IMG/VR virus record: IMGVR_UViG_3300044832_000020
Span: 1 to 62,107 of that record
Length of the DNA: 62,107 nucleotides
Direction: 5' to 3' (one strand)
DNA from: a virus
The notes under the pieces are model-generated. The model was given only the letters and a program-made list of their open reading frames with translations, had not been told where the DNA came from and did not search any database. A program made the position numbers and the translations under genes. Of the stretch, positions 1 to 59,293 are shown in pieces. Numbering within the stretch: position 1 is the first letter of the stretch; each line of letters begins with the position of its first letter.

Positions 1-23
1 AAGGCTGTAGCAGACCCACCAGA
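1..23. repeat. 23-bp direct terminal repeat, identical to 62085..62107
   Basis: aaggctgtagcagacccaccaga read at both window ends. Confidence 0.95.
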
Positions 24-2750
24 ACCACCAGACCCACCACTTTTGGGCCTTGCGGCCTCGATTTGCCACAATCTTTCATGAGCGCGACGCTCGCCGGCAT
101 TTCTTACCGTGAGCTGCCCGGCCCATCGACCGTTCCGATTACGTAGCCACATGCCCAGCGATTTGCTGACGACACCCACGCCGGCCGTCGATCGGTTGAC
201 CTTCTCGGCCAGCTCACCCGGCAGCGCGGTGACCGGGATCGGGCGGTCGGGTGCCCACAGGGAAGCGTCCAGCATGATGCTGGTGTTGACTTTGCTGAGC
301 AGCTCCTTCACCGACCAGGGCTCGGCCCCGAACACGCCGTAGATCGCTTCGAGGAACTCCCCCCAGTCGTCATCCTCGACGCCGGCAGGCTGCTGTACCG
401 AGTCGACGTGACCGAACGTCCCTGGCACACCCGCATGCATGAGCACACCCGACACGGTCTCTACCCAGCGCGCATAGCCATCGCTGCCCCGCTGCCGGTC
501 AACCGGTCGACCCGCCACCACCCAGGCACGGATAAGAACCAGCAGCGCGTGCAACAGCTCGCCACGGTGCTCGGTCGCCCAGCTTTCAAGGTCGCGGATC
601 GCGAACCCGGTCCGCGTTTCCGGGTTCGGCACGCCCGGGTCGATCGTCACCCACAGTGTTCGCCGGGCCAGGTCGCCGCCCAGAGAAAGGTTGTTGCCGG
701 TGATGATCCACAGGCGGTCGTTGGGGATCCCGATCCACTCGGTCGCCCCCAGCGGCCGGTCGCCCCAGGTCGCCGACGTCAGCAGGCCCGCCAGCGTCGA
801 GCTGCGCAACACACCCGACACGTTGTCGAAGTGGATTATCGGCCCGGTCGTCACCGTCAGCATGCTGGTTATCTGCTTGCGTAGCTCGGCCTCGTCCTCT
901 GGCACCTCCGCCCGGAACACGCCGCCGTGGATGATGCGGGCAATCGTGGCCAGCAAGGTCTTGCCGCTACCTGGCTGCGGGGACGAGATCGCGCCCAGCT
1001 TGTAGGGAGGTGGCGCCAACGTGCGGAGCAGCGGGGTCAGCAGCAAGCCGAAGTAGTTGGCCCGGTCGTGGTCGCTGACGAACCCGAACTCGCGCACCAT
1101 CTCGTCCAGCAACTTGACCGCGCGCTCCACGTCGCCGGTGCTCGGCTCGTCCGGCACCTCTGGCACATCGAACCCCGGCTCGGGCAGATACAGCAGCTCG
1201 GTCGCGACGTCGTAGCCGGGCTCGCGGACCAGCGAGCCATCCGGCCGGAAGACAGGGCTGTGGATAACACCCCGCAGCCGGCGTAGGTTCGGCAGCATGT
1301 CGGGCACGTCGGTCGCCACCCGGGCCGCGTCCGGTGGGAACATCGCCGACACGGCCGTCCAGGTGCTGCCGCGCTTCACCATCTTGTGACAGTCGAACGT
1401 GTACTGGACCCGGCTCGCCAGGTCGGATTTCTTGACCACCCGGACCTGCGCGGGGCCGTCCTCAGCCTTGGCGTCGTCGGACAGTGGCACGTAGCCCTCG
1501 TCGCCCTCACGCGGCGTGTGGACGATCTCGGTTCCCCGGGCGAACATCCCCGCCAGCGGGCCGGTGCCGACGTTGAGACGCAACCACTCGGCCATATCGG
1601 CCGGGTTGCCCACGTCGAGCGGGGGCTTGTCGGGTGGCCCCGACGGCGGTGGCTGGGGAGCCGCTGGACCCTGCCCACTACCGCCGCCGGACCCGTCCGG
1701 AGCACCCAGCGGTGGCACCCCGGAAAGTGTGAGCCTATCGCGCGGCGGCAACGGTGAACCGTAGTTGTCGTGTCGCAGCGCTGAGGCCGCAGCCGAGAGA
1801 TCCCCGCCGTGGCTGAGCAGCGCGTAGGCCGCGAATTTGCTGTAAGGCTTCTCGGTCTCGAACTCGGTCGACGTCGAGAACACGTACAGCCGGTCGACAC
1901 CGTCCGACGCGGTACCCGTCGTCGCGGACACGCCGTGTTCCTTGCCGGGCCGCGTCCAGGCGGCGCCGGTGCCGGCGAAGTTCTTCCGGGTCCGGTGCCA
2001 GCCCGCCGGGCCGAGAATGTCATCCCACTCAGCGCGCAGATTGAAGTCGTCACCGGGGCGTAGCTCACCGTCGACCGGCGCGCTCGTTGAGCCGTGGCTG
2101 ACGTACGGGTCAGCAGCCGGCATCGCGTCGAGCATGTTGGCGATCGCGTAGAGCAGGTCGCGCTCATCACCGGTGATGGTAGGGATAGTGACCGGTCCGC
2201 CGGCGAGCAGTTTCCACGACAGCCCGGTCTCGTGGGTGCGCCCACCGGACGGGGCGGTGATCACGAAGCCGCCCTCGCCGCGCGTCTCGACCAGCACCTT
2301 GACCCGGTCGGCCGGGTTGATCGCCAGCTCCTCGTCGGTGGCGGGCCGCCGGGCCAGCTTGGTGTTGCGGTGCGCGCCGTCGCTGACCCGGTACAGGAAG
2401 TGCAGCCCGCCGGACGGGGACTGCTCGACGTAGCCGGCGCAGAGCCGTGCCCACAGGCCGGCCGCGTCGTGGTTCGTGAAGGCATTGGCGAGGTCGGCGG
2501 TCAGGCCGATCGCGCGGCCCTCCAGCTCGAACATCTCCAGCCCGCGACTGACCGCGCCGCAGACCAGGCCGAACCCGTCGAACCGAGGACCCATCGGGGT
2601 CTCGCCGAACCAGTACTCCAGTTGCTCGTCGGCGGGTAGATCGGTCTGGTACTGCTCCCACCGGACAGCGGGCGCCTTGCTGCCGTCGACCCGGGCAGGG
2701 ATGACACAGCAGTCAGCGGCGGCGAACGCGCGCGCGGCGTCGAGTAGCAA
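1..2750 (-). CDS. bifunctional primase-polymerase (AEP/Prim-Pol) fused to a P-loop SF3/D5-like helicase; the 3-prime end leaves the window and continues in frame at 62084..61895 if the ends are joined
   Basis: The minus frame is open from 2918 to 1; it is missing from the ORF track because it is unterminated. My translation gives VLVETRGEGGFVITAPS (AEP motif) and SSPQPGSGKTLLAT (Walker A). TTG 2750 is preceded by GGAG. GTG 2918 is possible, but third-position GC is only about 60 percent in between. Confidence 0.8.
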   Translation of the reverse strand, partial: MLLDAARAFAAADCCVIPARVDGSKAPAVRWEQYQTDLPADEQLEYWFGETPMGPRFDGFGLVCGAVSRGLEMFELEGRAIGLTADLANAFTNHDAAGLWARLCAGYVEQSPSGGLHFLYRVSDGAHRNTKLARRPATDEELAINPADRVKVLVETRGEGGFVITAPSGGRTHETGLSWKLLAGGPVTIPTITGDERDLLYAIANMLDAMPAADPYVSHGSTSAPVDGELRPGDDFNLRAEWDDILGPAGWHRTRKNFAGTGAAWTRPGKEHGVSATTGTASDGVDRLYVFSTSTEFETEKPYSKFAAYALLSHGGDLSAAASALRHDNYGSPLPPRDRLTLSGVPPLGAPDGSGGGSGQGPAAPQPPPSGPPDKPPLDVGNPADMAEWLRLNVGTGPLAGMFARGTEIVHTPREGDEGYVPLSDDAKAEDGPAQVRVVKKSDLASRVQYTFDCHKMVKRGSTWTAVSAMFPPDAARVATDVPDMLPNLRRLRGVIHSPVFRPDGSLVREPGYDVATELLYLPEPGFDVPEVPDEPSTGDVERAVKLLDEMVREFGFVSDHDRANYFGLLLTPLLRTLAPPPYKLGAISSPQPGSGKTLLATIARIIHGGVFRAEVPEDEAELRKQITSMLTVTTGPIIHFDNVSGVLRSSTLAGLLTSATWGDRPLGATEWIGIPNDRLWIITGNNLSLGGDLARRTLWVTIDPGVPNPETRTGFAIRDLESWATEHRGELLHALLVLIRAWVVAGRPVDRQRGSDGYARWVETVSGVLMHAGVPGTFGHVDSVQQPAGVEDDDWGEFLEAIYGVFGAEPWSVKELLSKVNTSIMLDASLWAPDRPIPVTALPGELAEKVNRSTAGVGVVSKSLGMWLRNRNGRWAGQLTVRNAGERRAHERLWQIEAARPKSGGSGGSGGSATA
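11..39. repeat. arm of a 29-bp perfect inverted repeat (partner 61988..62016), built from three 9-bp units
   Basis: cagacccaccagaaccaccagacccacca is the exact reverse complement of 61988..62016. Confidence 0.95.
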
Positions 2751-2780
2751 CGGCTCCGCTTCCTCTCGATCAGGGATGGG

Positions 2781-2810
2781 GCCGTCACCGGTGACGTTCT
2801 GCCGGGTCGG
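2781..2810. promoter_or_regulatory. copy 4 of the quasi-palindromic motif GCCGTCACCGGTG-N8-10-CCGGGTCGG
   Basis: gccgtcaccggtgacgttctgccgggtcgg lies 31 nt upstream of the primase start, in a low-GC3 spacer. Confidence 0.7.
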
Positions 2811-2814
2811 GGAT

Positions 2815-2840
2815 CTCCCTGCATCTATTCGTGCAGGGGG
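2815..2840. promoter_or_regulatory. hairpin (about 9-bp stem, 8-nt AT-rich loop) upstream of the primase gene
   Basis: ctccctgca tctattcg tgcaggggg read directly. Confidence 0.5.
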
Positions 2841-2927
2841 ACTCGTGGACCAGCGGTGTGCGTCAAGCAGTGACGGTAGGGCGGGTGTTGCCGGGTTTCC
2901 GACGTCAGCCCGTGTCACCTCCCCCGC

Positions 2928-42578: not shown

Positions 42579-42739
42579 GGGCGCTTCACCGGCCTAGTGG
42601 CGCGTTCGAGCGAGCCGATGCCGGCGGCGCCGAGCAGTAGGCCGGCCACGATGAACCCGGCCCAGTACGCGAGCAGACCCGCACCGATGACGAGACACGC
42701 GGCAGCGCAGAGCAACAGCACGAGCGCGTACCAAGTCAT
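42575..42739 (-). CDS. small two-helix membrane protein (54 aa) between terminase and portal
   Basis: MTWYALVLLLCAAACLVIGAGLLAYWAGFIVAGLLLGAAGIGSL. Start overlaps the TerL stop (TAATG) and its stop overlaps the portal start (ATGA). Confidence 0.5.
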   Translation of the reverse strand: MTWYALVLLLCAAACLVIGAGLLAYWAGFIVAGLLLGAAGIGSLERATRPVKRP

Positions 42740-44424
42740 TAGCCCTCCCCGTAGATGAAGAACGGATCCTTCGGTGGTTCTTCGGCTTCCAGCACGGCCA
42801 GGCGCCCGTCGATCGACATAAGCAGCGTCACCATGCCGTCGATCCGCTTCCCGGTCTTGCCGCGATCCGGCTTCACCGGTCGTACCCGGTCGCCGTCGTC
42901 GCGGGGTGATTTCGCCTCCAAGCTGTCCGCCATCCATGTCGAGACGGGGTTGCCGCCGTGGGCCAGCTCCTGGGATTTGAGTAGCCGGGAAAGTTCCTTC
43001 ATCGGCAGCGTCATGCGGTCGAACGTCGTGGCGGACTCATTCATCTCCAGCCCGGTCCGTTTCTGGATCTCTTGCCGGACGGGCTCGCCGGACCACCGGT
43101 CGTAGACGATGCCGGCGATCGAGTAGCGCGCGTGGTCGATCTCGATCGCCGAATAGATCAGGTCGTAATCGATCGTGTTGCCATCGGTCAGGGTGACCCA
43201 GCCGGCGTCGCACCACAGCGAGAACTTGCCGGCGGTGTGTTTGTCGAGCAGTGGCACGACCGACTCGGGTGCCCAGTACCGCCAGATCACGGTGCCGTCC
43301 TCGAACAACAGCGACCACGCGGTCAGGTCCAGCTTGGACGAGAGGTCGAGACCGGCCCAGCACTTGCGCCCTTCGAGCTGAGGGGCGAGCCAGTCGGGCT
43401 CGGGCGCGATGCCGAGATCGCCGATGTTGTCGTTCCACTCGGCGATCGACAACCAGCGGGTCGTCTGCTGCACCCATTGGCTGAGCCGGAACTGCCGGAA
43501 CTTGTTCTCTTTGGTCCGGTCGTTCTTGGCTTCGACCGCTTCCTCCCGCAGTACCTGCAGGGACAGGAAGTCACCGAGCGCCGGGTTGCCCAGCTTCCAG
43601 TTGCGTTCGTTCCACGGGTCCGCGTCGGCCGGGACGTTGCGGATGTAAACGAACGTGTGGGGGTTCCGGCTCGGGTCCTCAGCGATCCGGATCATCTCGT
43701 CGTGCTCGGCCTTGGCGAACGATGAATCGTCGTCGCCGGGCGTCGTGACGCCGACCATGAGCGGCTGGGTGCGAGCGCCGAAGCCGGTTCGCAGCGCTGA
43801 CCAGAGATCCCCGTTCGGCTGGGTGATGACCTCATCGAACGCGATCCCGTGCGGGTTCTGTCCGAGGTTGCCGGATGCGTCGGCGGCGATCACTTGATAG
43901 AACGACCCGGTTCGTTCGTCCACGATCCGCTTGCCTTGCTTGTAGATCGTCAACCGCTGAGACAGGATCGGCGACAGCTCCACCATCCGGCGCGCGACCT
44001 CGTAAACGATCGACGCTTGGTCCCTGTCTTTGGCGCACCCGTACAGCTCGGCGCCCTCTTCGCCGTCGGCGACCAGCAGAAACAGCATGATGCCGGCGAG
44101 CAGCTCGGATTTCCCGTTCTTGCGGCCCAGCTCGATCCACGCGATCCGGTACCGGCGGACGTACGTCTCCGACTCGGGGTCCCAGCGGATCGTCCCGAAC
44201 AACGGCGCGACGATATCCCGTTTCTGCCACAACGCCAGCGCGAACGCTTTCCGCGCCCACCTGGCCTTGGTGTGGACGAGCACTTCGGCGAAGAACTTGA
44301 CGACATGCGTGACGCGCGGCGCGCAGTGATGATCGCCGACCTTGCGACATGTCGTCCCGTCGAGCGCGTAGCCGCAAGGCGGTAGGCGCCGCTGTACCGC
44401 CTTCGAGGGGGTTCTAGTTGTCAT
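42739..44424 (-). CDS. terL: terminase large subunit
   Basis: 561 aa. LGRKNGKSELLAGI (Walker A-like), FDEV (Walker B-like) and a C-terminal nuclease-type region. Confidence 0.8.
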   Translation of the reverse strand: MTTRTPSKAVQRRLPPCGYALDGTTCRKVGDHHCAPRVTHVVKFFAEVLVHTKARWARKAFALALWQKRDIVAPLFGTIRWDPESETYVRRYRIAWIELGRKNGKSELLAGIMLFLLVADGEEGAELYGCAKDRDQASIVYEVARRMVELSPILSQRLTIYKQGKRIVDERTGSFYQVIAADASGNLGQNPHGIAFDEVITQPNGDLWSALRTGFGARTQPLMVGVTTPGDDDSSFAKAEHDEMIRIAEDPSRNPHTFVYIRNVPADADPWNERNWKLGNPALGDFLSLQVLREEAVEAKNDRTKENKFRQFRLSQWVQQTTRWLSIAEWNDNIGDLGIAPEPDWLAPQLEGRKCWAGLDLSSKLDLTAWSLLFEDGTVIWRYWAPESVVPLLDKHTAGKFSLWCDAGWVTLTDGNTIDYDLIYSAIEIDHARYSIAGIVYDRWSGEPVRQEIQKRTGLEMNESATTFDRMTLPMKELSRLLKSQELAHGGNPVSTWMADSLEAKSPRDDGDRVRPVKPDRGKTGKRIDGMVTLLMSIDGRLAVLEAEEPPKDPFFIYGEG

Positions 44425-48736: not shown

Positions 48737-49753
48737 ATGTCGCACCAGCTAGAACGCAACGGCACCGAGGTCGCCTTTGTCGACAACCGGAACGATGCTT
48801 GGCACCAGCTCAACAACCTGCCGGCCGAGTATCAGGGCAAGAAAATCAGCGCGGAGGTAGCGCTGGAGGCCGGCCACCTCGCCGACTGGAACGTCCGCAA
48901 GGTTCCCGCGTATGCCCTGCTCGACGGCGGCGAGTACGTCGCGATGCCCGGTCAATTCGCCACCGTTCGCGACAACCCCTGGACGCCAGGCCAAGTCGAT
49001 CTGCTCGGCAGTGTCGGCAGCGCCTACGTGCCCGTCCAGAACGAAAGCAACATCGACGTCCTGAATGCCGTTATCGATGAGACGGGCGCCACGATCGAGA
49101 CCGCCGGCTCGCTGCGCGACGGCAAGAACGTGTTCGTCACGATGAAACTCCCCGACACGATGAGCGTGGGCGGCGTCGACAAGGTCGATCTCTACATCGC
49201 CGGTCTCAACAGCCACGATGGGACGTCCGCGTACAACATCCTCGTCTCGCCGGTCCGCGTCGTCTGCGCCAACACCCAGAGCTATGCGCTCCGCAACTTC
49301 GAGGCGAAACACCCGATCCGCCACACATCCAGCGCGACCAAGAAAATCGAGCTGGTCCGCCAGTCGCTCGGGCTCGCGTTCAAGTACGCCGAGGAGCTGC
49401 AGGTCGAGGCAGACAAGATGATCGACACCGCGCAGACCGAGGCCCAGTTCCTGGAGATCGTCAACCAGATCTGGACCCCCGACGACGAGCCCAGCAAGCG
49501 GGCCGTCACCGTCGCTGCCGAGCGCACCGCAAAGCTGGTCGACCTGTTCTCAGTCGCCCCCACCCAGGCGAACATCAGGGGCACCCGCTGGGCCGGTCTG
49601 CAGGCAGTCACCGAGTACATGGACCATTTCGCGCCCGTCCACAGTGGCCAGCGCGACGAAGCCACCCAGCGCGCCGAGCGCGTCCTGGTCGGCTCCACCG
49701 CCGCCAGCAAGTCGACCCGCCAAAAGGCGTTCGACCTCTTCTCCGTCAACTGA
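48737..49753 (+). CDS. DUF932-family phage/plasmid protein (338 aa)
   Basis: NDAWHQL...VPVQNE...GKNVFVTMKLP...LNSHDGTSAY...VRVVCANT fits the DUF932/TIGR03299 pattern. Confidence 0.65.
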   Translation: MSHQLERNGTEVAFVDNRNDAWHQLNNLPAEYQGKKISAEVALEAGHLADWNVRKVPAYALLDGGEYVAMPGQFATVRDNPWTPGQVDLLGSVGSAYVPVQNESNIDVLNAVIDETGATIETAGSLRDGKNVFVTMKLPDTMSVGGVDKVDLYIAGLNSHDGTSAYNILVSPVRVVCANTQSYALRNFEAKHPIRHTSSATKKIELVRQSLGLAFKYAEELQVEADKMIDTAQTEAQFLEIVNQIWTPDDEPSKRAVTVAAERTAKLVDLFSVAPTQANIRGTRWAGLQAVTEYMDHFAPVHSGQRDEATQRAERVLVGSTAASKSTRQKAFDLFSVN

Positions 49754-53709: not shown

Positions 53710-53933
53710 GAGCCAAGCTGGAGCGAGATTTCGACGGCGGCGCCATCGTCATCACGACCCGGCGCCGCTGGTATCGAGCCGGCGCCTGGTTCGGCATTGC
53801 GCCCGGTCACCACAAGGGACTGTGGCACACACCCGGCCGAGTGCATGGCTGGAATCTGCGGGTCGGGTCGCTGCACAAGTGCCTCACTCTGCTCGGTCAC
53901 ACGCGGCCCCGCGATGACAGGTATGACCGATGA
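53706..53933 (+). CDS. hypothetical protein (75 aa)
   Basis: ATG 53706 in ATGA overlap. Confidence 0.45.
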   Translation: MRAKLERDFDGGAIVITTRRRWYRAGAWFGIAPGHHKGLWHTPGRVHGWNLRVGSLHKCLTLLGHTRPRDDRYDR

Positions 53934-54319
53934 TGCCGCCCGAAGAACTGCGCGTGCTGACCGTGCGCCAGCCCCACGCCAGCGCGATCGTGCTCGGGCA
54001 CAAAGACGTCGAGAACCGCACATGGCAATGCCCGGTGCGTAGCGTCATCGCCATCCATGCCGGCAAGTCGCCCAGCGAGATCGCGCTGGCCATGCCGCTG
54101 CTGCTGCCCGACCCGCTACCGACCGGCGCCATCATCGGCGTGGTTCGCGTCGCCGACTGCCTGCCCGGCACGTCGACCAGCCCGTGGGCGATCCCCGGGC
54201 ACTGGCACTGGGTGCTCGCCGACCCCCGGCTACTGAAAGTGCCGGTCGCCTTCACGGGGCGCCAGGCCCTCATCCACGCACCGGCCGACGTCGCTCGCGC
54301 CGTGCTGGACCAGCTTTGA
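53930..54319 (+). CDS. ASCH-domain (PUA-like) protein (129 aa)
   Basis: LTVRQPHASAIVLGHKDVENRTW...IAIHAG fits the ASCH N-terminal pattern. Confidence 0.6.
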   Translation: MMPPEELRVLTVRQPHASAIVLGHKDVENRTWQCPVRSVIAIHAGKSPSEIALAMPLLLPDPLPTGAIIGVVRVADCLPGTSTSPWAIPGHWHWVLADPRLLKVPVAFTGRQALIHAPADVARAVLDQL

Positions 54320-54345
54320 CGGGAACCCGCTCCCTTTGCGTGCCC

Positions 54346-54373
54346 GACGCTCCCCTCCCTGGAGGGGAGCGTC
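54346..54373. terminator. bidirectional stem-loop at the convergence of the plus block and the early minus operon
   Basis: gacgctcccctcc ct ggaggggagcgtc read directly. Confidence 0.7.
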
Positions 54374-54394
54374 TCCCCTGTGTGTTCGTATCTG

Positions 54395-55522
54395 TCAGCC
54401 TTCCGACGCGGCAGGGGGCAACGTCGAGCGTCCCAGCGGCACGTACTCGAACGACCTCACCGAGAGCCGGCGGGGGCTGAGGTTCCCGCGTCGCAGACTG
54501 GAGCGGGTTGTCGTCATCAACTGCCGAAGGTTCTTCGACGTCGAGCGCCAGCGCGGCGAGCGGGTGCAGTAGGCGATCACCGCCGGGTGCGCCACCACGT
54601 ACCGATAGCGGAACCCCTGATCGGCCAGGCGCTCCCCGACCCAGTCATTCATCCGCATGCCCAGACCGAGGCCCTGGAAGTCAGGCAGCACCACCAGCCG
54701 GTGCGCCATCTTGATCGTGCTCGTGTGCGGGTGCTGGAAATGCTTGTAGGCCGTGAACGCCACCAGCCGGCCGTCGATCCAGCCGCCGTAGCACGTCGCC
54801 GAACTGATCAGCTCGGCGCTCAAATAGTGATGACGGCGGAACATCTGCCAGGCAGCTTTGCCCACCGGGGCAATGGCAAGCTCGACTGGAGGGTGGGGTT
54901 GAACCGACCTCCAGTTGAATTCGCCGGTCGCCAGATCCAGCACCCAATCGGGCTGCAGCCAGTCGTGAACGTCGTAATGGCACGTCACCGCGACGAACCG
55001 CTGGCCGTTGCGGCGGACCGTTTTCTGCAGGGCATGCGAGGCGACCTGCGCGACCTGGCGATCCACGACCGAGGTGAACTCGTCCACGACCGTGACGCCG
55101 TCGACCGGCTCGGACAGCAGGCGCGCCATGTCGGCGCGGAACTGCTCGCCGTTGCTCAACGTCCGGTACGGCCGGCACCAGCTCGGCGGTGAGGACAGCC
55201 CCACGGCGGACAGCGCGCCGGTCACGTCTTTGATGCCCATCTGCTCGGGGAAGCCGTCAACGATCGCGGAATCCGCCGGCCAGGGCTTCATCTCGCGCAT
55301 CTGCTCGGGCCAGCGCTCCCGGGCGATGGTCGTCTTGCCCGATCCGGACGGGCCGACGATCATGCCGACCTGCCACGGTTGCGCATCGAGCGGCAGCGAC
55401 ACGTCCCAACTGAGGTCGGCCCGGTCAGCCAGCGGCACATCGAACATCGCCGAGAGCTGCAGCACCCGGCCGGATCGCTGCACCGGCGTGGAGACTGAGA
55501 CCTTGACCCGGTCGCCGCTCAT
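54395..55522 (-). CDS. ABC-type ATPase fused to a GNAT-like acyltransferase domain (375 aa)
   Basis: GPSGSGKTT (Walker A), LSNGEQFRA (signature), VVDEFTS (Walker B). The C-terminal RRHHYL...RLVVLPDFQGLGLG is a GNAT-like CoA-binding loop. Confidence 0.6.
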   Translation of the reverse strand: MSGDRVKVSVSTPVQRSGRVLQLSAMFDVPLADRADLSWDVSLPLDAQPWQVGMIVGPSGSGKTTIARERWPEQMREMKPWPADSAIVDGFPEQMGIKDVTGALSAVGLSSPPSWCRPYRTLSNGEQFRADMARLLSEPVDGVTVVDEFTSVVDRQVAQVASHALQKTVRRNGQRFVAVTCHYDVHDWLQPDWVLDLATGEFNWRSVQPHPPVELAIAPVGKAAWQMFRRHHYLSAELISSATCYGGWIDGRLVAFTAYKHFQHPHTSTIKMAHRLVVLPDFQGLGLGMRMNDWVGERLADQGFRYRYVVAHPAVIAYCTRSPRWRSTSKNLRQLMTTTRSSLRRGNLSPRRLSVRSFEYVPLGRSTLPPAASEG

Positions 55523-55824
55523 GTCCCCACCTTCAGGTCGGTACCGTCCCAGACGAACTCGCCGGCCTCGCCGACCGGGAAGTGAGCCCTGCAGCCGACG
55601 CAGAACGTCCCGCCATAGAAGGACGGATCGCGGGCGTACGTCTCGGCGATCGCCCGGCCCATCGTCGTGACCGTGCCACATGGCAAGTGCCGGTATCGGG
55701 TGCGGACAGGTCGCACGAAACCCTTGGCGCGCTCGTCGTCCGACAGCACCAGATATTTCTCCTGCATGCCGTCCGGCTCGATCTTGCGCAGGCCCGGATC
55801 GTTGCGATCGTCTGTCGTGCTCAC
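55519..55824 (-). CDS. hypothetical protein with C...CVGC motif (101 aa)
   Basis: GTG 55824 in GTGA overlap; ATGA overlap downstream. Confidence 0.5.
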   Translation of the reverse strand: MSTTDDRNDPGLRKIEPDGMQEKYLVLSDDERAKGFVRPVRTRYRHLPCGTVTTMGRAIAETYARDPSFYGGTFCVGCRAHFPVGEAGEFVWDGTDLKVGT

Positions 55825-55919
55825 ACTGCCCACCAGCCCCCGATGGATCCGACCATGACGACGATCACGCCGGCCAGGAATCCGAGCAGCCCGAAGTACG
55901 CCTCGTCCCAGCCCTTCAT
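55821..55919 (-). CDS. 32-aa transmembrane mini-protein
   Basis: MKGWDEAYFGLLGFLAGVIVVMVGSIGGWWAV; overlaps at both ends. Confidence 0.35.
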   Translation of the reverse strand: MKGWDEAYFGLLGFLAGVIVVMVGSIGGWWAV

Positions 55920-56581
55920 GCGAACGTGACGGCGTCGCCGTCGCCGTCGACCAGCTTGGCGAGATCGTCCCAGCTCAACTTGAACCGGCCCTTCACTCCC
56001 CAGCCGGCGCCCCACGAATTGGTGCCGAGCACGTACTTGCCTTTGACGTTGACGCCATTCAGCTCGACCTCATGGCCGCCGACCTCAGCGCCGGTCGCGT
56101 GGATGAAACCGGCCGGATCGGTGAACATCATGCCATTGAGCCAGCGAACGCCGATCCCCACCGGGCCGACGTGCGAGATCGTGTCGATGATCTGCTGATG
56201 GCCGAAACACCAGCGGTAGCCGGTGATCAGGTTCACGGACAGCAGGTACTTGCAGGCGCCGAGCGCGGAGGTGCCGTCGTAGTTGGCGCCGGGCCACTCG
56301 TCAAAGTCCTGTGCGTGCCGGTAGATATCCAGCGCATTGAGGCCGGCGCGCTGAGCCGGCGACAGGTGAGCCGTGAACGGGGTCGTTGTCAGTAGCCCCT
56401 TCATTGTTTGCCCAACGCAACTACTGGTCTGACCCTGATCGAATGGCGCCGGCCGGCGCCAGGTCCGGTTGCGCAGGGGCTGATCGGTCGCCAGCGTGAC
56501 CGGGTAGTCCCGTGAGCGGGGGTCGTGCTGGATCACCGACCGGCCCATGTAGCTCGGGGAAACAATCTGGATGCTGGTCAT
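55916..56581 (-). CDS. papain-like (C1 family) cysteine peptidase (221 aa)
   Basis: DQGQTSSCVGQ (Gln/Cys), GGHEVEL (His) and GTNSWGAGWGVKGRF (Asn-Ser-Trp) match the papain catalytic signature. Confidence 0.65.
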   Translation of the reverse strand: MTSIQIVSPSYMGRSVIQHDPRSRDYPVTLATDQPLRNRTWRRPAPFDQGQTSSCVGQTMKGLLTTTPFTAHLSPAQRAGLNALDIYRHAQDFDEWPGANYDGTSALGACKYLLSVNLITGYRWCFGHQQIIDTISHVGPVGIGVRWLNGMMFTDPAGFIHATGAEVGGHEVELNGVNVKGKYVLGTNSWGAGWGVKGRFKLSWDDLAKLVDGDGDAVTFA

Positions 56582-56781
56582 CGTGCGCCGCCCTTCCAGC
56601 CGGTGTCGTTGACCGGCATGCCGTGCGAGTCGAGCAGCCGGGGCCAGCCGGGCTGTTCCGGGCCGTCAATGTTCGAGTAGAGCCGCTTGGTCCGGCGCGC
56701 CCCGCAACTGCACTGGTAGTAGGCGTGAAGGTCGGCCTGCCAATTGGGGTCGCTGTGGAAATGCGGCCAGCGCCACCTCAT
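56578..56781 (-). CDS. hypothetical protein (67 aa)
   Basis: Track ORF with ATGA overlaps. Confidence 0.5.
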   Translation of the reverse strand: MRWRWPHFHSDPNWQADLHAYYQCSCGARRTKRLYSNIDGPEQPGWPRLLDSHGMPVNDTGWKGGAR

Positions 56782-57374
56782 CGGACCATCGCCCGGACGT
56801 CGAGCCCTTCCGCGTCGAGCTTCTCCAAGAGATCGAGCTGTTGCGCCTCATCCCGGCAAGTGATGATCACACCCCAGACCGGGTCCTCCTCGTCGTCGCC
56901 GCCCTCGTCCACGGACTGATCCCCGACCAGCTTGGCGAGATCCTCCTCGCTGTAGCCGGTCGCGGTGAGATCGTCCATGCCGCCGAGCATTTCGGCCAGC
57001 ATCTCCGGGTCCCGCTTCGCCAGCTCGGCGATGCGATTGTCGGCAGCAACGATCCCGACCGCCTCTTCCTGGTCGACGTCGATCAGCGTCCGGGCGATAT
57101 CCGGCCAGCCTTCCTGCCGGGCCGCCTGCCAGGTGTGGTTGCCGGCCAGGATCTCATTCGGCCGGCCAGTCAACGTGCCGATGTTGACCGTGATCGGCTT
57201 GTACTGGCCGAACCGGCGCAGGCTCCGCCGGATCAACGCGACGTCGCCCACGTTCGGGTTGCCCTTGAACTGACGCAGCTCCTCGATCGGCACCACCAGC
57301 TCGGCGAGCTGGGTATGGATCCGTGGCCGGGTCTCGGACGCCTCGGTCACCTCGGTCGCCTTCCGCGCGTTCAC
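56778..57374 (-). CDS. ParB N-terminal-domain (ParB-like nuclease/NTPase fold) protein (198 aa)
   Basis: VPIEELRQFKGNPN...LIRRSLRRFGQYKPITV...ILAGNHTWQAA fits the ParBc motif pattern. Confidence 0.55.
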   Translation of the reverse strand: MNARKATEVTEASETRPRIHTQLAELVVPIEELRQFKGNPNVGDVALIRRSLRRFGQYKPITVNIGTLTGRPNEILAGNHTWQAARQEGWPDIARTLIDVDQEEAVGIVAADNRIAELAKRDPEMLAEMLGGMDDLTATGYSEEDLAKLVGDQSVDEGGDDEEDPVWGVIITCRDEAQQLDLLEKLDAEGLDVRAMVR

Positions 57375-58376: not shown

Positions 58377-58706
58377 TCACTGCCGACCTCGGGTATTGCG
58401 GTTCTCGTTCTCGTGTTCGGGTCCTTTGTAGATTCGGGGATCGGCCGGATCGTGACCGAGATCCCACGCTTGACCGGGCTCGATCAGCTCGTCGCATCGC
58501 CAGCAGTGCGCGAGACCTGCTGCGACCTGCTCGGCTACCTGTGCGCGCAGTCGCTGATGCGGCGTGCCGTAGCCACGCTGACTGGTGGTGCCTTTGCGCG
58601 CTGCACACACACCACACCGCTGACCCACTGGGTGCTTGGTCGTGCAGCGGGGGCAGATCGTGAGCGGGCGTGTGGGCATGGGACTCAGCGCAGGTAGCGG
58701 CCACAT
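58377..58706 (-). CDS. HNH endonuclease (start 58706 or ATG 58679)
   Basis: CPRC...RC..C...RGYG..H.RLR...CWRC...WDLGHD...GPEH resembles a phage HNH. Confidence 0.7.
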   Translation of the reverse strand: MWPLPALSPMPTRPLTICPRCTTKHPVGQRCGVCAARKGTTSQRGYGTPHQRLRAQVAEQVAAGLAHCWRCDELIEPGQAWDLGHDPADPRIYKGPEHENENRNTRGRQ

Positions 58707-59293
58707 GAGGGCCAGGGTGAGGCGCCACGCTGGGCGTACAGGGCTTTGGCCCTGGCGAGCTGCTCGGATGCTGAGGCCGCTGCCGGGTCACCGCTACCGC
58801 CGACGCTGCGCCAGGTGCGGGTGTCGAACTGGAACAGCCCCCGATAGGTGCCTGATGGGTTGACTGCCCGGGGGTTGCCACCGCTCTCGCAGCGGGCGAC
58901 CTGTGCCCATGCGCCTGACAGTGTGACGCGGCTACTGGTACGTGATGGCCGGGTGGTGCGTGACCGGGTGGTGCGTGACCGGGTGGCCGGGTGGTAGGCC
59001 CGTGCTGCCGGTGTCGGTGGGTAGTAGCGGCGCTCGATCGAGCTGACGCCGGTGAGGTCGAGGTGTTGACCGATGAGGATCAGGTCAGGGTTGGCGAGGT
59101 GGTTGGTGATGGCCAACAGGTGCCAGTCGACACCTCGTGCGGCGCCCAGCCCGGACAGTGTGTCGCCCGGCTTGACGGTGTAGGCATCAGCGCTGATGGC
59201 GCCGGCTACTGCGAGACCGGTGCCTAGGAGGGTTGCGAGTAGAGCTCTGACCGCATAGCGCGAGCGAGGCTTGGCATGACGGGCATGAGACAT
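58685..59293 (-). CDS. secreted LysM + Rpf-like (resuscitation-promoting-factor-type transglycosylase) protein (202 aa)
   Basis: Signal peptide ALLATLLGTGLAVAGAISA. LysM YTVKPGDTLSGL...ILIGQHLDL. Rpf-type domain WAQVARCESGGNPRAVNPSGTYRGLFQFDTRTW...WPSCG. Confidence 0.7.
   Translation of the reverse strand: MSHARHAKPRSRYAVRALLATLLGTGLAVAGAISADAYTVKPGDTLSGLGAARGVDWHLLAITNHLANPDLILIGQHLDLTGVSSIERRYYPPTPAARAYHPATRSRTTRSRTTRPSRTSSRVTLSGAWAQVARCESGGNPRAVNPSGTYRGLFQFDTRTWRSVGGSGDPAAASASEQLARAKALYAQRGASPWPSCGRYLR

Follow-up and report, generated by a model that had tools for sequence, protein, structure and literature searches.

A conserved phage gene pair encoding a ParB-like protein and an ABC-ATPase/GNAT fusion within a mosaic gene cluster

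A conserved pair in a mosaic cluster

Do six phage genes that are chained end to end on one strand form a single functional system, or do they simply share a transcript? The question is raised by a stretch of viral DNA of 62,107 nucleotides (IMG/VR record IMGVR_UViG_3300044832_000020), referred to here in its entirety as the window, whose minus strand carries six open reading frames (ORFs) between positions 54395 and 57374. All six have a coding-type GC content at third codon positions (GC3, 0.84-0.89), and all five gene junctions are 4-nt start/stop overlaps of the form ATGA or GTGA. In order of transcription, the products are a ParB-like protein, a 67-aa protein, a papain-like (C1) cysteine peptidase, a membrane peptide, a protein with a Cys/His motif, and a fusion of an ABC-type ATPase with a GNAT acyltransferase, termed ABC/GNAT below. 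An original prediction, made from the sequence alone, had treated these genes as one co-functional cluster, and the gene order and chain of overlaps on which it was built are present exactly as described. Its further claim of co-expression is also reasonable, since the 4-nt overlaps make co-transcription of the six genes plausible. The single cluster itself does not hold: four of the six genes occur independently elsewhere, and nothing lies between the ParB and ABC/GNAT genes in 146 of 174 loci surveyed. With high confidence, the region is instead a mosaic that contains a conserved ParB–ABC/GNAT pair.

A nine-sequence alignment of the ABC/GNAT family was used to collect 80 IMG/VR loci and the same number from GTDB genomes; with 13 additional loci and the window, these made up the survey, in which neighboring genes were identified by searching all six-frame ORFs with iteratively built profiles. 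In the 146 loci, the ParB gene is immediately upstream of the ABC/GNAT gene on the same strand. It lies 151-500 nt away in a further 10 loci and more than 500 nt away in 11, including the window (1274 nt). The ParB gene is absent from 3 loci whose upstream sequence is sufficient to judge, 3 loci are truncated upstream of ABC/GNAT, and 1 has a ParB-methyltransferase on the opposite strand. Conservation of the gene neighborhood, which the original prediction had named as a check on its cluster, is therefore strong for the two end genes and lacking for the four genes between them. Unbiased clustering of the neighbors also produced ORF clusters 2, 3, 5, 8, 10, and 12, which were discarded as spurious antisense or alternative-frame ORFs inside ABC/GNAT.

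The same arrangement recurs among named phages. A translated search of deposited phage genomes with ABC/GNAT retrieved 73 records from very diverse hosts, including Gordonia, Arthrobacter, Streptococcus, Lactococcus, Porphyromonas, Aeromonas, Leptospira, Burkholderia, and Pseudomonas. The ParB gene sits directly 5ʹ of ABC/GNAT, with overlapping stop and start codons, in Gordonia phages Jace (gp85-86) and BiggityBass (gp1-2), Arthrobacter phage EastWest (gp74-75), and Streptococcus prophage 315.4, and Leptospira phages LE3 and LE4 (gp12-13) show the same pairing (PMC6078989). Gene fusion provides independent evidence that the two proteins work together. Among the best 150 family representatives, 11 are single chains of 558-623 aa in which a full-length N-terminal ParB is followed by ABC/GNAT, and these fusions fall into eleven separate clusters at 50% identity (P0251, P0256, P0260, P0261, P0269, P0270, P0279, P0294, P0313, P0349, and P0382).

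Phages with ABC/GNAT are associated with Actinomycetota, Bacillota, Pseudomonadota, Bacteroidota, Spirochaetota, and Planctomycetota, prophages of Streptococcus pyogenes among them, and carriers of the pair include integrated prophages as well as lytic T4-like phages. When 1.84 billion cluster representatives were searched exhaustively, 674 family members emerged at E ≤ 1e-30 (50% identity clusters), and the larger collection holds more than 7600 sequences of the family. The ParB–ABC/GNAT pair is thus widespread in phages, and it is uncharacterized. Database names for the fusion protein include "ABC transporter," "ATP-binding cassette-like protein," "GNAT," and "unknown," and a search of the literature found no paper that describes or characterizes the pair, in agreement with the original failure to match the locus to a described system.

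The paired proteins and their conserved neighbors

The ABC/GNAT protein (375 aa; 54395-55522, minus strand) matches PHROG 11143, a family of unknown function, from end to end (E = 1.1e-101; residues 7-361 against positions 2-349 of a 357-position profile). Its ABC-type ATPase domain (aa 1-205; 54908-55522, minus strand) contains Walker A (GPSGSGKT), signature (LSNGE), Walker B (VVDEF), and H-loop (CH) motifs, and its GNAT acyltransferase domain (aa 206-375; 54395-54907, minus strand) matches Pfam Acetyltransf_1 (PF00583; 25.1 bits, cut-off 20.7) and carries the acyl-CoA-binding motif R-x-V-V-L-P-D-x-Q-G-x-G. In alignments that extend from Actinomycetota phages to T4-like Aeromonas phages, the Walker A, signature, Walker B with its Glu, H-loop, and acyl-CoA motifs are all invariant. 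In the AlphaFold model of the fusion (pLDDT 86), an ABC nucleotide-binding domain precedes a GNAT fold. Foldseek places the ATPase domain nearest to the nucleotide-binding domains of MalK, PotA, SufC, and FtsE (E ~ 1e-7), SufC and other ABC ATPases are likewise found when the fusion is compared with PDB sequences, and the GNAT domain aligns with generic GNATs, including RimI, at TM scores of 0.5-0.66. Motifs and fold thus assign the protein to the ABC ATPase superfamily, profile, motif, and fold assign it to the GNAT family, and both catalytic domains look active from the residues that they retain. Neither the window nor the related loci examined contain a permease or transmembrane-domain partner gene, and the ATPase is fused to a GNAT domain instead; for these reasons, ABC/GNAT is not considered a transporter.

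Broader comparisons add little to this assignment. The acceptor type could not be read from Foldseek on the GNAT domain alone, which returned only generic GNATs, and the sole match in a BFVD structure search was a family member from Leptospira phage LE4. Defence and counter-defence profiles of PADLOC-DB gave generic matches only (a type II methyltransferase model, over its ParB region, and MADS proteins, over ABC stretches), and Pfam scans of long ABC/GNAT representatives revealed no informative fusion beyond ParB and an intein. The intein lies in the ATPase domain of P0330 (715 aa) and consists of a Hint domain with a LAGLIDADG homing endonuclease; P0288 and P0363 show similar split matches. 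In streptococcal, lactococcal, and Oenococcus phages, ABC and GNAT match as two pieces annotated "ABC transporter" and "hypothetical" (for example, L005 3968-5037 in Streptococcus prophage 315.4 and related S. pyogenes prophages), which are either split genes or frameshifted ones.

The ParB-like protein (198 aa; 56778-57374, minus strand) is encoded by the first gene transcribed. It matches PHROG 723, annotated ParB-like (E = 4e-44), and four other ParB PHROGs; the Pfam ParB_N match (PF02195) is sub-threshold (18.3 bits, cut-off 26.3), and Noc heads the PDB sequence matches (E = 0.002). Profile matches to its N-terminal fold place the protein in the ParB/Srx superfamily, and this fold is followed by an acidic linker and a C-terminal mini-domain. 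The window protein also matches the N-terminal region of the ParB-methyltransferase profiles phrog_498 and PDLC03229. A Pfam scan detected neither a helix-turn-helix (HTH) nor a ParB-C domain, and the adjacent ATPase is of the ABC type with a GNAT domain, not ParA. The locus therefore lacks the HTH and ParA features of a ParABS system; parS sites were not searched for.

Canonical NTP binding is doubtful in the clade to which the window ParB belongs. Box II reads G-N-H-T in the window protein, as opposed to G-H-x-R in 114 of 168 module-linked ParBs, and the phosphate-binding arginine, which belongs to Box II in its form GERRxRA and in the module-linked form G-H-x-R, is accordingly missing. The Thr is shared by 38 of the 168, and in this clade a second widely kept Arg within residues ~40-95 is also replaced (N-x-R to N-P-N). 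It is these two substitutions, of Arg by Thr and of Arg by Asn, that cast doubt on nucleotide binding, which the clade may have lost while its C-terminal mini-domain stayed intact.

The mini-domain (aa 165-198, WGVIITCRDEAQQLDLLEKLDAEGLDVRAMVR; 56781-56882, minus strand; PHROG 28816) is the best-conserved stretch of the 168 module-linked ParBs. It occupies the last ~35 residues, with the consensus GVIVxCxDExxQxxLxxRLxxEGxxCR, in which the C is kept in 149 proteins, the E in 164, the Q in 166, and the G in 162. Burkholderia phage phiE255 (gp28) and Porphyromonas phages dispense with the ParB domain altogether, and a free-standing mini-domain of 42-54 aa directly precedes ABC/GNAT. Moreover, a profile seeded with these small proteins retrieved exactly the same ORFs as the ParB profile. 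From this pattern, we infer that the mini-domain is a docking element for ABC/GNAT. Apparent long ParB variants (290-470 aa) were set aside: Pfam shows no extra domains in them, and the likely explanation is over-extension of the ORF calls in GC-rich DNA. One such variant proved to be the ParB-methyltransferase on the opposite strand.

A third gene lies across the end of the operon and was missed by the original prediction, although it neighbors the pair in a quarter of loci. This gene (129 aa; 53930-54319, plus strand), convergent with the module and outside the range noted at first, encodes an ASCH protein whose best PDB sequence matches are the ASCH domain of human TRIP4/ASC-1 (E = 3.5e-5). 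Its Pfam score (PF04266) is 17.8 bits, below the cut-off of 21.2, and the homologue in L009 scores 22.3 bits, above it. Of the 174 loci, 43 have a homologue, which in at least 29 is downstream and convergent and usually abuts the module, as in Jace and in Nonomuraea prophages; in Streptococcus prophage 315.4, the ASCH gene is on the same strand. The octapeptide G-x-K-x-x-E-x-R reads GHKDVENR in the window, and its K, E, and R are kept in all 43 linked homologues, so that both fold and octapeptide mark the protein as a predicted ASCH amidohydrolase. The convergent ASCH gene belongs to the core of the module as a conserved third component. All 19 ASCH proteins assayed in one preprint, TRIP4-ASCH included, strip N4-acetyl from cytidine by means of a conserved catalytic Lys and Glu (bioRxiv 10.64898/2026.02.27.708502), and YqfB, an N4-acetylcytidine amidohydrolase with an ASCH domain, acts like EOLA1 on free N4-acetylcytidine (PMC6972931). 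Jace gp89 (L001 7211-7531) is homologous to the window ASCH protein but was deposited as a "helix-turn-helix DNA binding protein."

Downstream of the module, the gene content varies between lineages. In 10 loci, an aspartate 1-decarboxylase and a family III CoA-transferase lie directly 3ʹ of the module; the two enzymes would together produce beta-alanine and could attach it to CoA. In 3 loci, those of BiggityBass (L003), phiE255 (L004), and a Porphyromonas phage (L006), the gene after ABC/GNAT encodes a formyltransferase. Two of these downstream genes are deposited under other names: BiggityBass gp3 (L003 1823-2473), deposited as "tRNA-methyltransferase," matches Formyl_trans_N, and Jace gp88 (L001 6535-7218), deposited as "hypothetical," is a CoA-transferase III. 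Among the 131 loci that extend at least 3 kb downstream, 79 encode the large terminase subunit (TerL) there, on the same strand as the module. Three different TerL families are represented, and a small-terminase-like gene (cluster 9) often lies between the module and TerL.

A possible base-acylating module and its rivals

What might the pair do? The original prediction had proposed host takeover, DNA or protein modification, or counter-defence for the cluster as a whole. DNA or protein modification suits the two end genes; a joint system with the protease, or of all six genes, is not supported. That the pair acylates a base of a nucleic acid is judged at a little below even confidence, on the strength of a ParB precedent, ASCH chemistry, the precedent of ATPase–GNAT architecture, and the variable downstream enzymes. 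The narrower proposal that the target is N4 of cytosine in DNA is tentative.

In the proposed mechanism, ABC/GNAT would dimerize on ATP and use the ATP cycle to engage nucleic acid and expose a base, and the GNAT domain would then move an acyl group from acyl-CoA onto an exocyclic base amine. The likeliest target would be cytosine N4 in replicated phage DNA before packaging, a site suggested by the linkage of a GNAT writer to an N4-acyl-cytosine amidohydrolase. The ParB-like protein would dock via its mini-domain and either activate the enzyme or target it on double-stranded DNA, ASCH would serve as the matching N4-acyl-cytosine amidohydrolase, either as an eraser or in salvage, and the biological payoff would be protection of packaged DNA from host restriction. 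Because the window lacks donor-making genes, the donor in this phage would be a host acyl-CoA such as acetyl-CoA; in relatives with aspartate decarboxylase and CoA-transferase, it would be beta-alanyl-CoA. More generally, the lineage-variable downstream enzymes would make or tailor an amine-bearing acyl group, as is typical of hypermodification pathways. Stated in full, the proposal is a new class of hypermodification in which a ParB-activated, ATP-driven acyltransferase writes N4-acyl groups on cytosines of replicated phage DNA before packaging. The group would be acetyl in the window, beta-alanyl where decarboxylase and CoA-transferase are present, and formylated amino-acyl where formyltransferase is present, and ASCH would be the first eraser of N4-acyl-cytosine in DNA. 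This fuller scheme is possible and is put forward with limited confidence.

Several known systems share parts of this layout. In the 5mYOX system (PMC13229309), a cognate phage ParB without a DNA-binding domain is required by a thymine dioxygenase on double-stranded DNA, its conserved NTP-binding residues are dispensable, and the modules co-occur with terminases. That ParB likewise combines an N-terminal NTP-binding fold with a C-terminal domain and adjoins the modifying enzyme. However, the 5mYOX enzyme is an Fe/2-oxoglutarate dioxygenase, whereas the module partner is predicted from its sequence to be an ABC-ATPase/GNAT acyltransferase. Phage ParB folds are also often fused to DNA methyltransferases and to PUA-like/ASCH domains (PMC12704722). 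A ParB/Srx fold is coupled to a DNA-modifying enzyme in DpdB of the 7-deazaguanine Dpd system, in DndB of phosphorothioation, and in ParB-fused phage DNA methyltransferases, although the chemistry of these systems is different and the coupling element of the module is the mini-domain, which also exists as a free-standing small protein.

TmcA and NAT10, enzymes composed of a P-loop ATPase and a GNAT domain that write N4-acetylcytidine, are known to transfer an acyl group to a base amine. Together with the ASCH erasers YqfB, EOLA1, and TRIP4-ASCH, they resemble the module in having the P-loop ATPase and GNAT domain in a single chain and in the linked ASCH protein with its Lys and Glu. Unlike the module, with its ABC-type ATPase, they have a helicase-type P-loop and a DUF1726/tRNA-binding domain. 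The module, for its part, has a ParB partner and a packaging-gene context; its target may be DNA, and its acyl group may not be acetyl. Membership in the TmcA/NAT10 family was rejected, as Pfam and NCBIfam profiles give ABC-type matches and neither TmcA nor DUF1726; the likeness is one of architecture, not homology. Mom of phage Mu, a phage enzyme with a GNAT-like fold, acylates DNA at adenine N6 (forming N6-carbamoylmethyl-adenine), a base-amine modification by which the phage evades restriction. In the Mu-like phage phiE255, ABC/GNAT follows the tail-fibre genes, where Mu has com/mom. Unlike ABC/GNAT, Mom has neither an ATPase domain nor a ParB partner, and the Mom structure appears among the fold matches to the GNAT domain as a weak generic match only, at rank 46.

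A number of observations weigh against base acylation of phage DNA by this module. Homology to Mom was tried and rejected, the alignment of a 48-sequence profile with Mu Mom by hhalign giving a probability of 0.08 and E = 0.62. The fold neighbors of the GNAT domain are generic, with the protein acetyltransferase RimI among the best, and do not indicate the acceptor, and the ABC domain resembles soluble or transporter-type nucleotide-binding domains, not the DNA-binding types of SMC, Rad50, or UvrA. The window ParB lacks two Arg residues kept by most relatives. Only a quarter of loci have ASCH, and ASCH activity has been demonstrated on RNA and free nucleosides, not on DNA. A search of the whole window for genes encoding aspartate decarboxylase, CoA-transferase, or formyltransferase found none; the window module, unlike that of most relatives, is distant from the terminase (42739-44424, minus strand), which lies ~10 kb away across a plus-strand block. 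Furthermore, the 174 loci are the best matches to the window protein, and their statistics fit its own branch of the family best. The literature yielded no experiment on any ABC/GNAT family member, and none of the phages with the module is known to have a modified base.

Some of the same observations would fit other targets. An RNA target is unlikely: in such a scheme, ABC/GNAT, as a functional counterpart of TmcA/NAT10, would acylate cytidines of host or phage tRNA or rRNA and retune translation, and ASCH would reverse the mark. It would accommodate the fact that every demonstrated ASCH substrate is N4-acetylcytidine, either in tRNA or as the free nucleoside, and it is consistent with the parallel between the ATPase–GNAT architecture and that of TmcA and with an ABC domain nearer to soluble/transporter-type ATPases than to DNA-clamp types. 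PUA-like domains, for which RNA links have been suggested, are also found fused to phage ParB folds (Kaljevic et al., PMC12704722). However, the Pfam scan detected no tRNA-binding domain, the ParB partner is near-obligate and the characterized accessory roles of such proteins (5mYOX, DpdB, and DndB) concern DNA modification, and the usual place of the pair is just 5ʹ of terS/terL, where DNA methyltransferases also sit.

A protein target is given a similarly low probability. ABC/GNAT would then acetylate a host factor, or else a packaging or structural protein of the phage, in the course of host takeover or counter-defence, with ParB as a regulator only. RimI and N-terminal acetyltransferases are indeed among the structural neighbors of the GNAT domain, GNATs in phage conflict proteins have been argued to act on proteins (PMC5512222), and host takeover had been part of the original prediction. 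Acetylation of a protein would nevertheless leave the linked ASCH gene and the ParB fusions unexplained, the decarboxylase/CoA-transferase and formyltransferase genes imply an unusual amine-bearing acyl group and not acetyl, and no known defence or anti-defence family of PADLOC-DB is matched.

Less probable still is a free nucleotide as the acceptor. ParB folds are general NTP-binding modules for CTP, ATP, or GTP (PMC12704722), and in this scheme, the fold would bind CTP/dCTP or a signaling nucleotide that the GNAT domain acylates, which would yield a modified precursor for replication or inactivate a defence signal, with ASCH acting in salvage. The use of free N4-acetylcytidine by YqfB and EOLA1 and the donor-making genes would suit a small-molecule pathway of this kind. 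On the other hand, the window ParB is without the Box II Arg for phosphate binding, phiE255 and the Porphyromonas phages keep the mini-domain only and no NTP-binding fold, and acylation of a small molecule needs no ABC ATPase.

Quite improbable is a role in DNA handling, either recognition of a packaging site or prophage/plasmid partition, in which ParB would bind DNA, the ABC domain would be the motor, and the GNAT domain would be regulatory. The position of the pair upstream of TerL in 79 of 131 loci and the classical role of ParB as a partition protein both recommend it, but neither an HTH domain nor ParA is present, a separate small-terminase-like gene (cluster 9) stands between the pair and TerL in many loci, and the pair occurs in integrated prophages and lytic T4-like phages alike. 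Furthermore, no variation is seen in the acyl-CoA motif, and enzymes that would make a donor are linked to the pair. The very improbable reading that all six genes form one system of DNA-binding fold, protease, and acyltransferase can draw on five consecutive 4-nt overlaps, which imply co-translation, and on the small genes found at the same spot in the closest relatives, L009 and L012, but the inserted genes vary among relatives, the peptidase is missing from both of these loci, each inserted gene is found independently elsewhere, and the pair is uninterrupted in 146 of 174 loci. Acylation of a nucleic-acid base, tentatively at cytosine N4 of DNA, is thus the reading preferred here.

Inserted genes, flanking sequence, and significance

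The four genes that separate ParB from ABC/GNAT are independent mobile insertions, co-transcribed with the pair and nothing more. They are not part of the module because they occur elsewhere alone and differ between the closest relatives of the window locus, as is seen when these are compared. L012, whose ABC/GNAT is 78% identical to that of the window, has the 67-aa protein and a different 120-aa gene inside the pair, and L009 (70% identical) has the 67-aa protein, a 50-aa ORF, and the Cys protein; neither has the peptidase. Independent occurrence, the finding that the original prediction itself said would refute a single system, therefore applies to four of the six genes.

The 67-aa protein (56578-56781, minus strand) has no family match and only 8 homologue clusters, and its homologues in L183-L186 lie in early/replication regions without ParB or ABC/GNAT. 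The Cys/His-motif protein (C...CxxCxxH; 101 aa; 55519-55824, minus strand), read from a GTG start at 55824 that gives it the length of its homologues, has no Pfam or PHROG match and 5252 homologues, mostly of 101 aa and 70-83% identical. It is encoded directly 5ʹ of an Amidase_2 lysin in L181 (4001-4306) and of a PIG-L deacetylase in L182 (4001-4306); among the ABC/GNAT loci, it is found in L009 and L023 only. This is strong conservation for a small phage protein that carries no annotation.

The peptidase (221 aa; 55916-56581, minus strand) belongs to family C1 (papain) by both profile and catalytic residues. It matches Pfam PF00112 (22.4 bits, cut-off 20.7) and PHROG 16701 (E = 3e-44), and its top PDB match is cathepsin B, in an alignment that spans the His and Asn-Ser-Trp region. 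Its catalytic signature is intact in the translation (Q48...C54, GGH, and N-S-W-G), as had been predicted, and it has no signal peptide. The other domain calls of the original prediction also agree with the profile matches, catalytic motifs, and AlphaFold fold. A homologue is present in 3 of the 173 other loci and lies inside the ParB–ABC/GNAT pair in none of them. The stop codon of the peptidase gene is joined by an ATGA overlap to the gene for a single-pass membrane peptide of 32 aa (55821-55919, minus strand), which reaches a Kyte-Doolittle hydropathy maximum of 2.3.

The order of peptidase and membrane peptide is also that of the peptidase homologue and a small membrane protein or holin in other phages. 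The window peptidase is 30-37% identical to deposited actinophage "cysteine protease" genes, some of which are found in lysis cassettes. In Gordonia phages Aleemily (gp29), Sixama (gp109), and Lilbeanie (gp40), whose proteases are 33-37% identical to the window peptidase and have a small membrane protein after them, the cassette runs lysin A, lysin A, hypothetical, protease, holin, membrane proteins, lysin B. A membrane protein flanks the homologue in Mufasa8 and BirdsNest. Unlike these proteases, the window peptidase is away from any recognizable lysin A/lysin B cassette, it lies inside the ParB–ABC/GNAT pair, and its membrane partner has just 32 aa. For the peptidase and the membrane peptide, the most likely target is the cell envelope at the time of lysis. 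The same operon contains a second cell-wall-active gene that is not in an obvious lysis cassette (58685-59293, minus strand); its 202-aa product has a hydrophobic segment at its N terminus, together with a LysM-like region and a transglycosylase motif of the Rpf type, and matches PHROGs 4602/29757. The adjoining gene (58377-58706, minus strand) encodes an HNH endonuclease (PHROG 1808).

The operon ends, as predicted, at a convergent terminator. RNA folding of 54310-54405 and a scan for terminator-like elements identified a perfect, GC-rich hairpin of 12 bp at 54346-54373, between the convergent stop codons of the ABC/GNAT and ASCH genes, and this hairpin is likely a bidirectional terminator. 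On the opposite-strand block, a 338-aa protein (48737-49753, plus strand) matches PHROG 1221, a family of unknown function, end to end (E = 3e-99). At the far end of the window, a 972-aa ORF with coding-type GC3 (1-2918, minus strand) runs off the first position, so the window start is neither a genome end nor a gene boundary. The window is without a close sequenced relative: a near-identity DNA search of the region against deposited phages gave no match, and the first 25 kb of the window gave nothing but a 54-nt match.

For phage biology, the evidence from gene neighborhoods gives a concrete hypothesis for a large family that crosses bacterial phyla and of which the window is an ordinary, if atypically interrupted, instance. 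In addition, several deposited phage annotations within the module are wrong or empty. The individual folds and ParB-assisted DNA modification were already known, while the ParB–ABC/GNAT(–ASCH) module appears to be undescribed. If the proposed function is correct, it would reveal a natural nucleic-acid modification and an anti-restriction strategy that are both new, and, were the target cytosine in DNA, acylated cytosine would join the natural bases of DNA in phages that span at least six bacterial phyla. The ParB-like partner would then be the second example of a ParB fold that serves as an enzyme activator, and the phage ASCH proteins would gain a physiological context.

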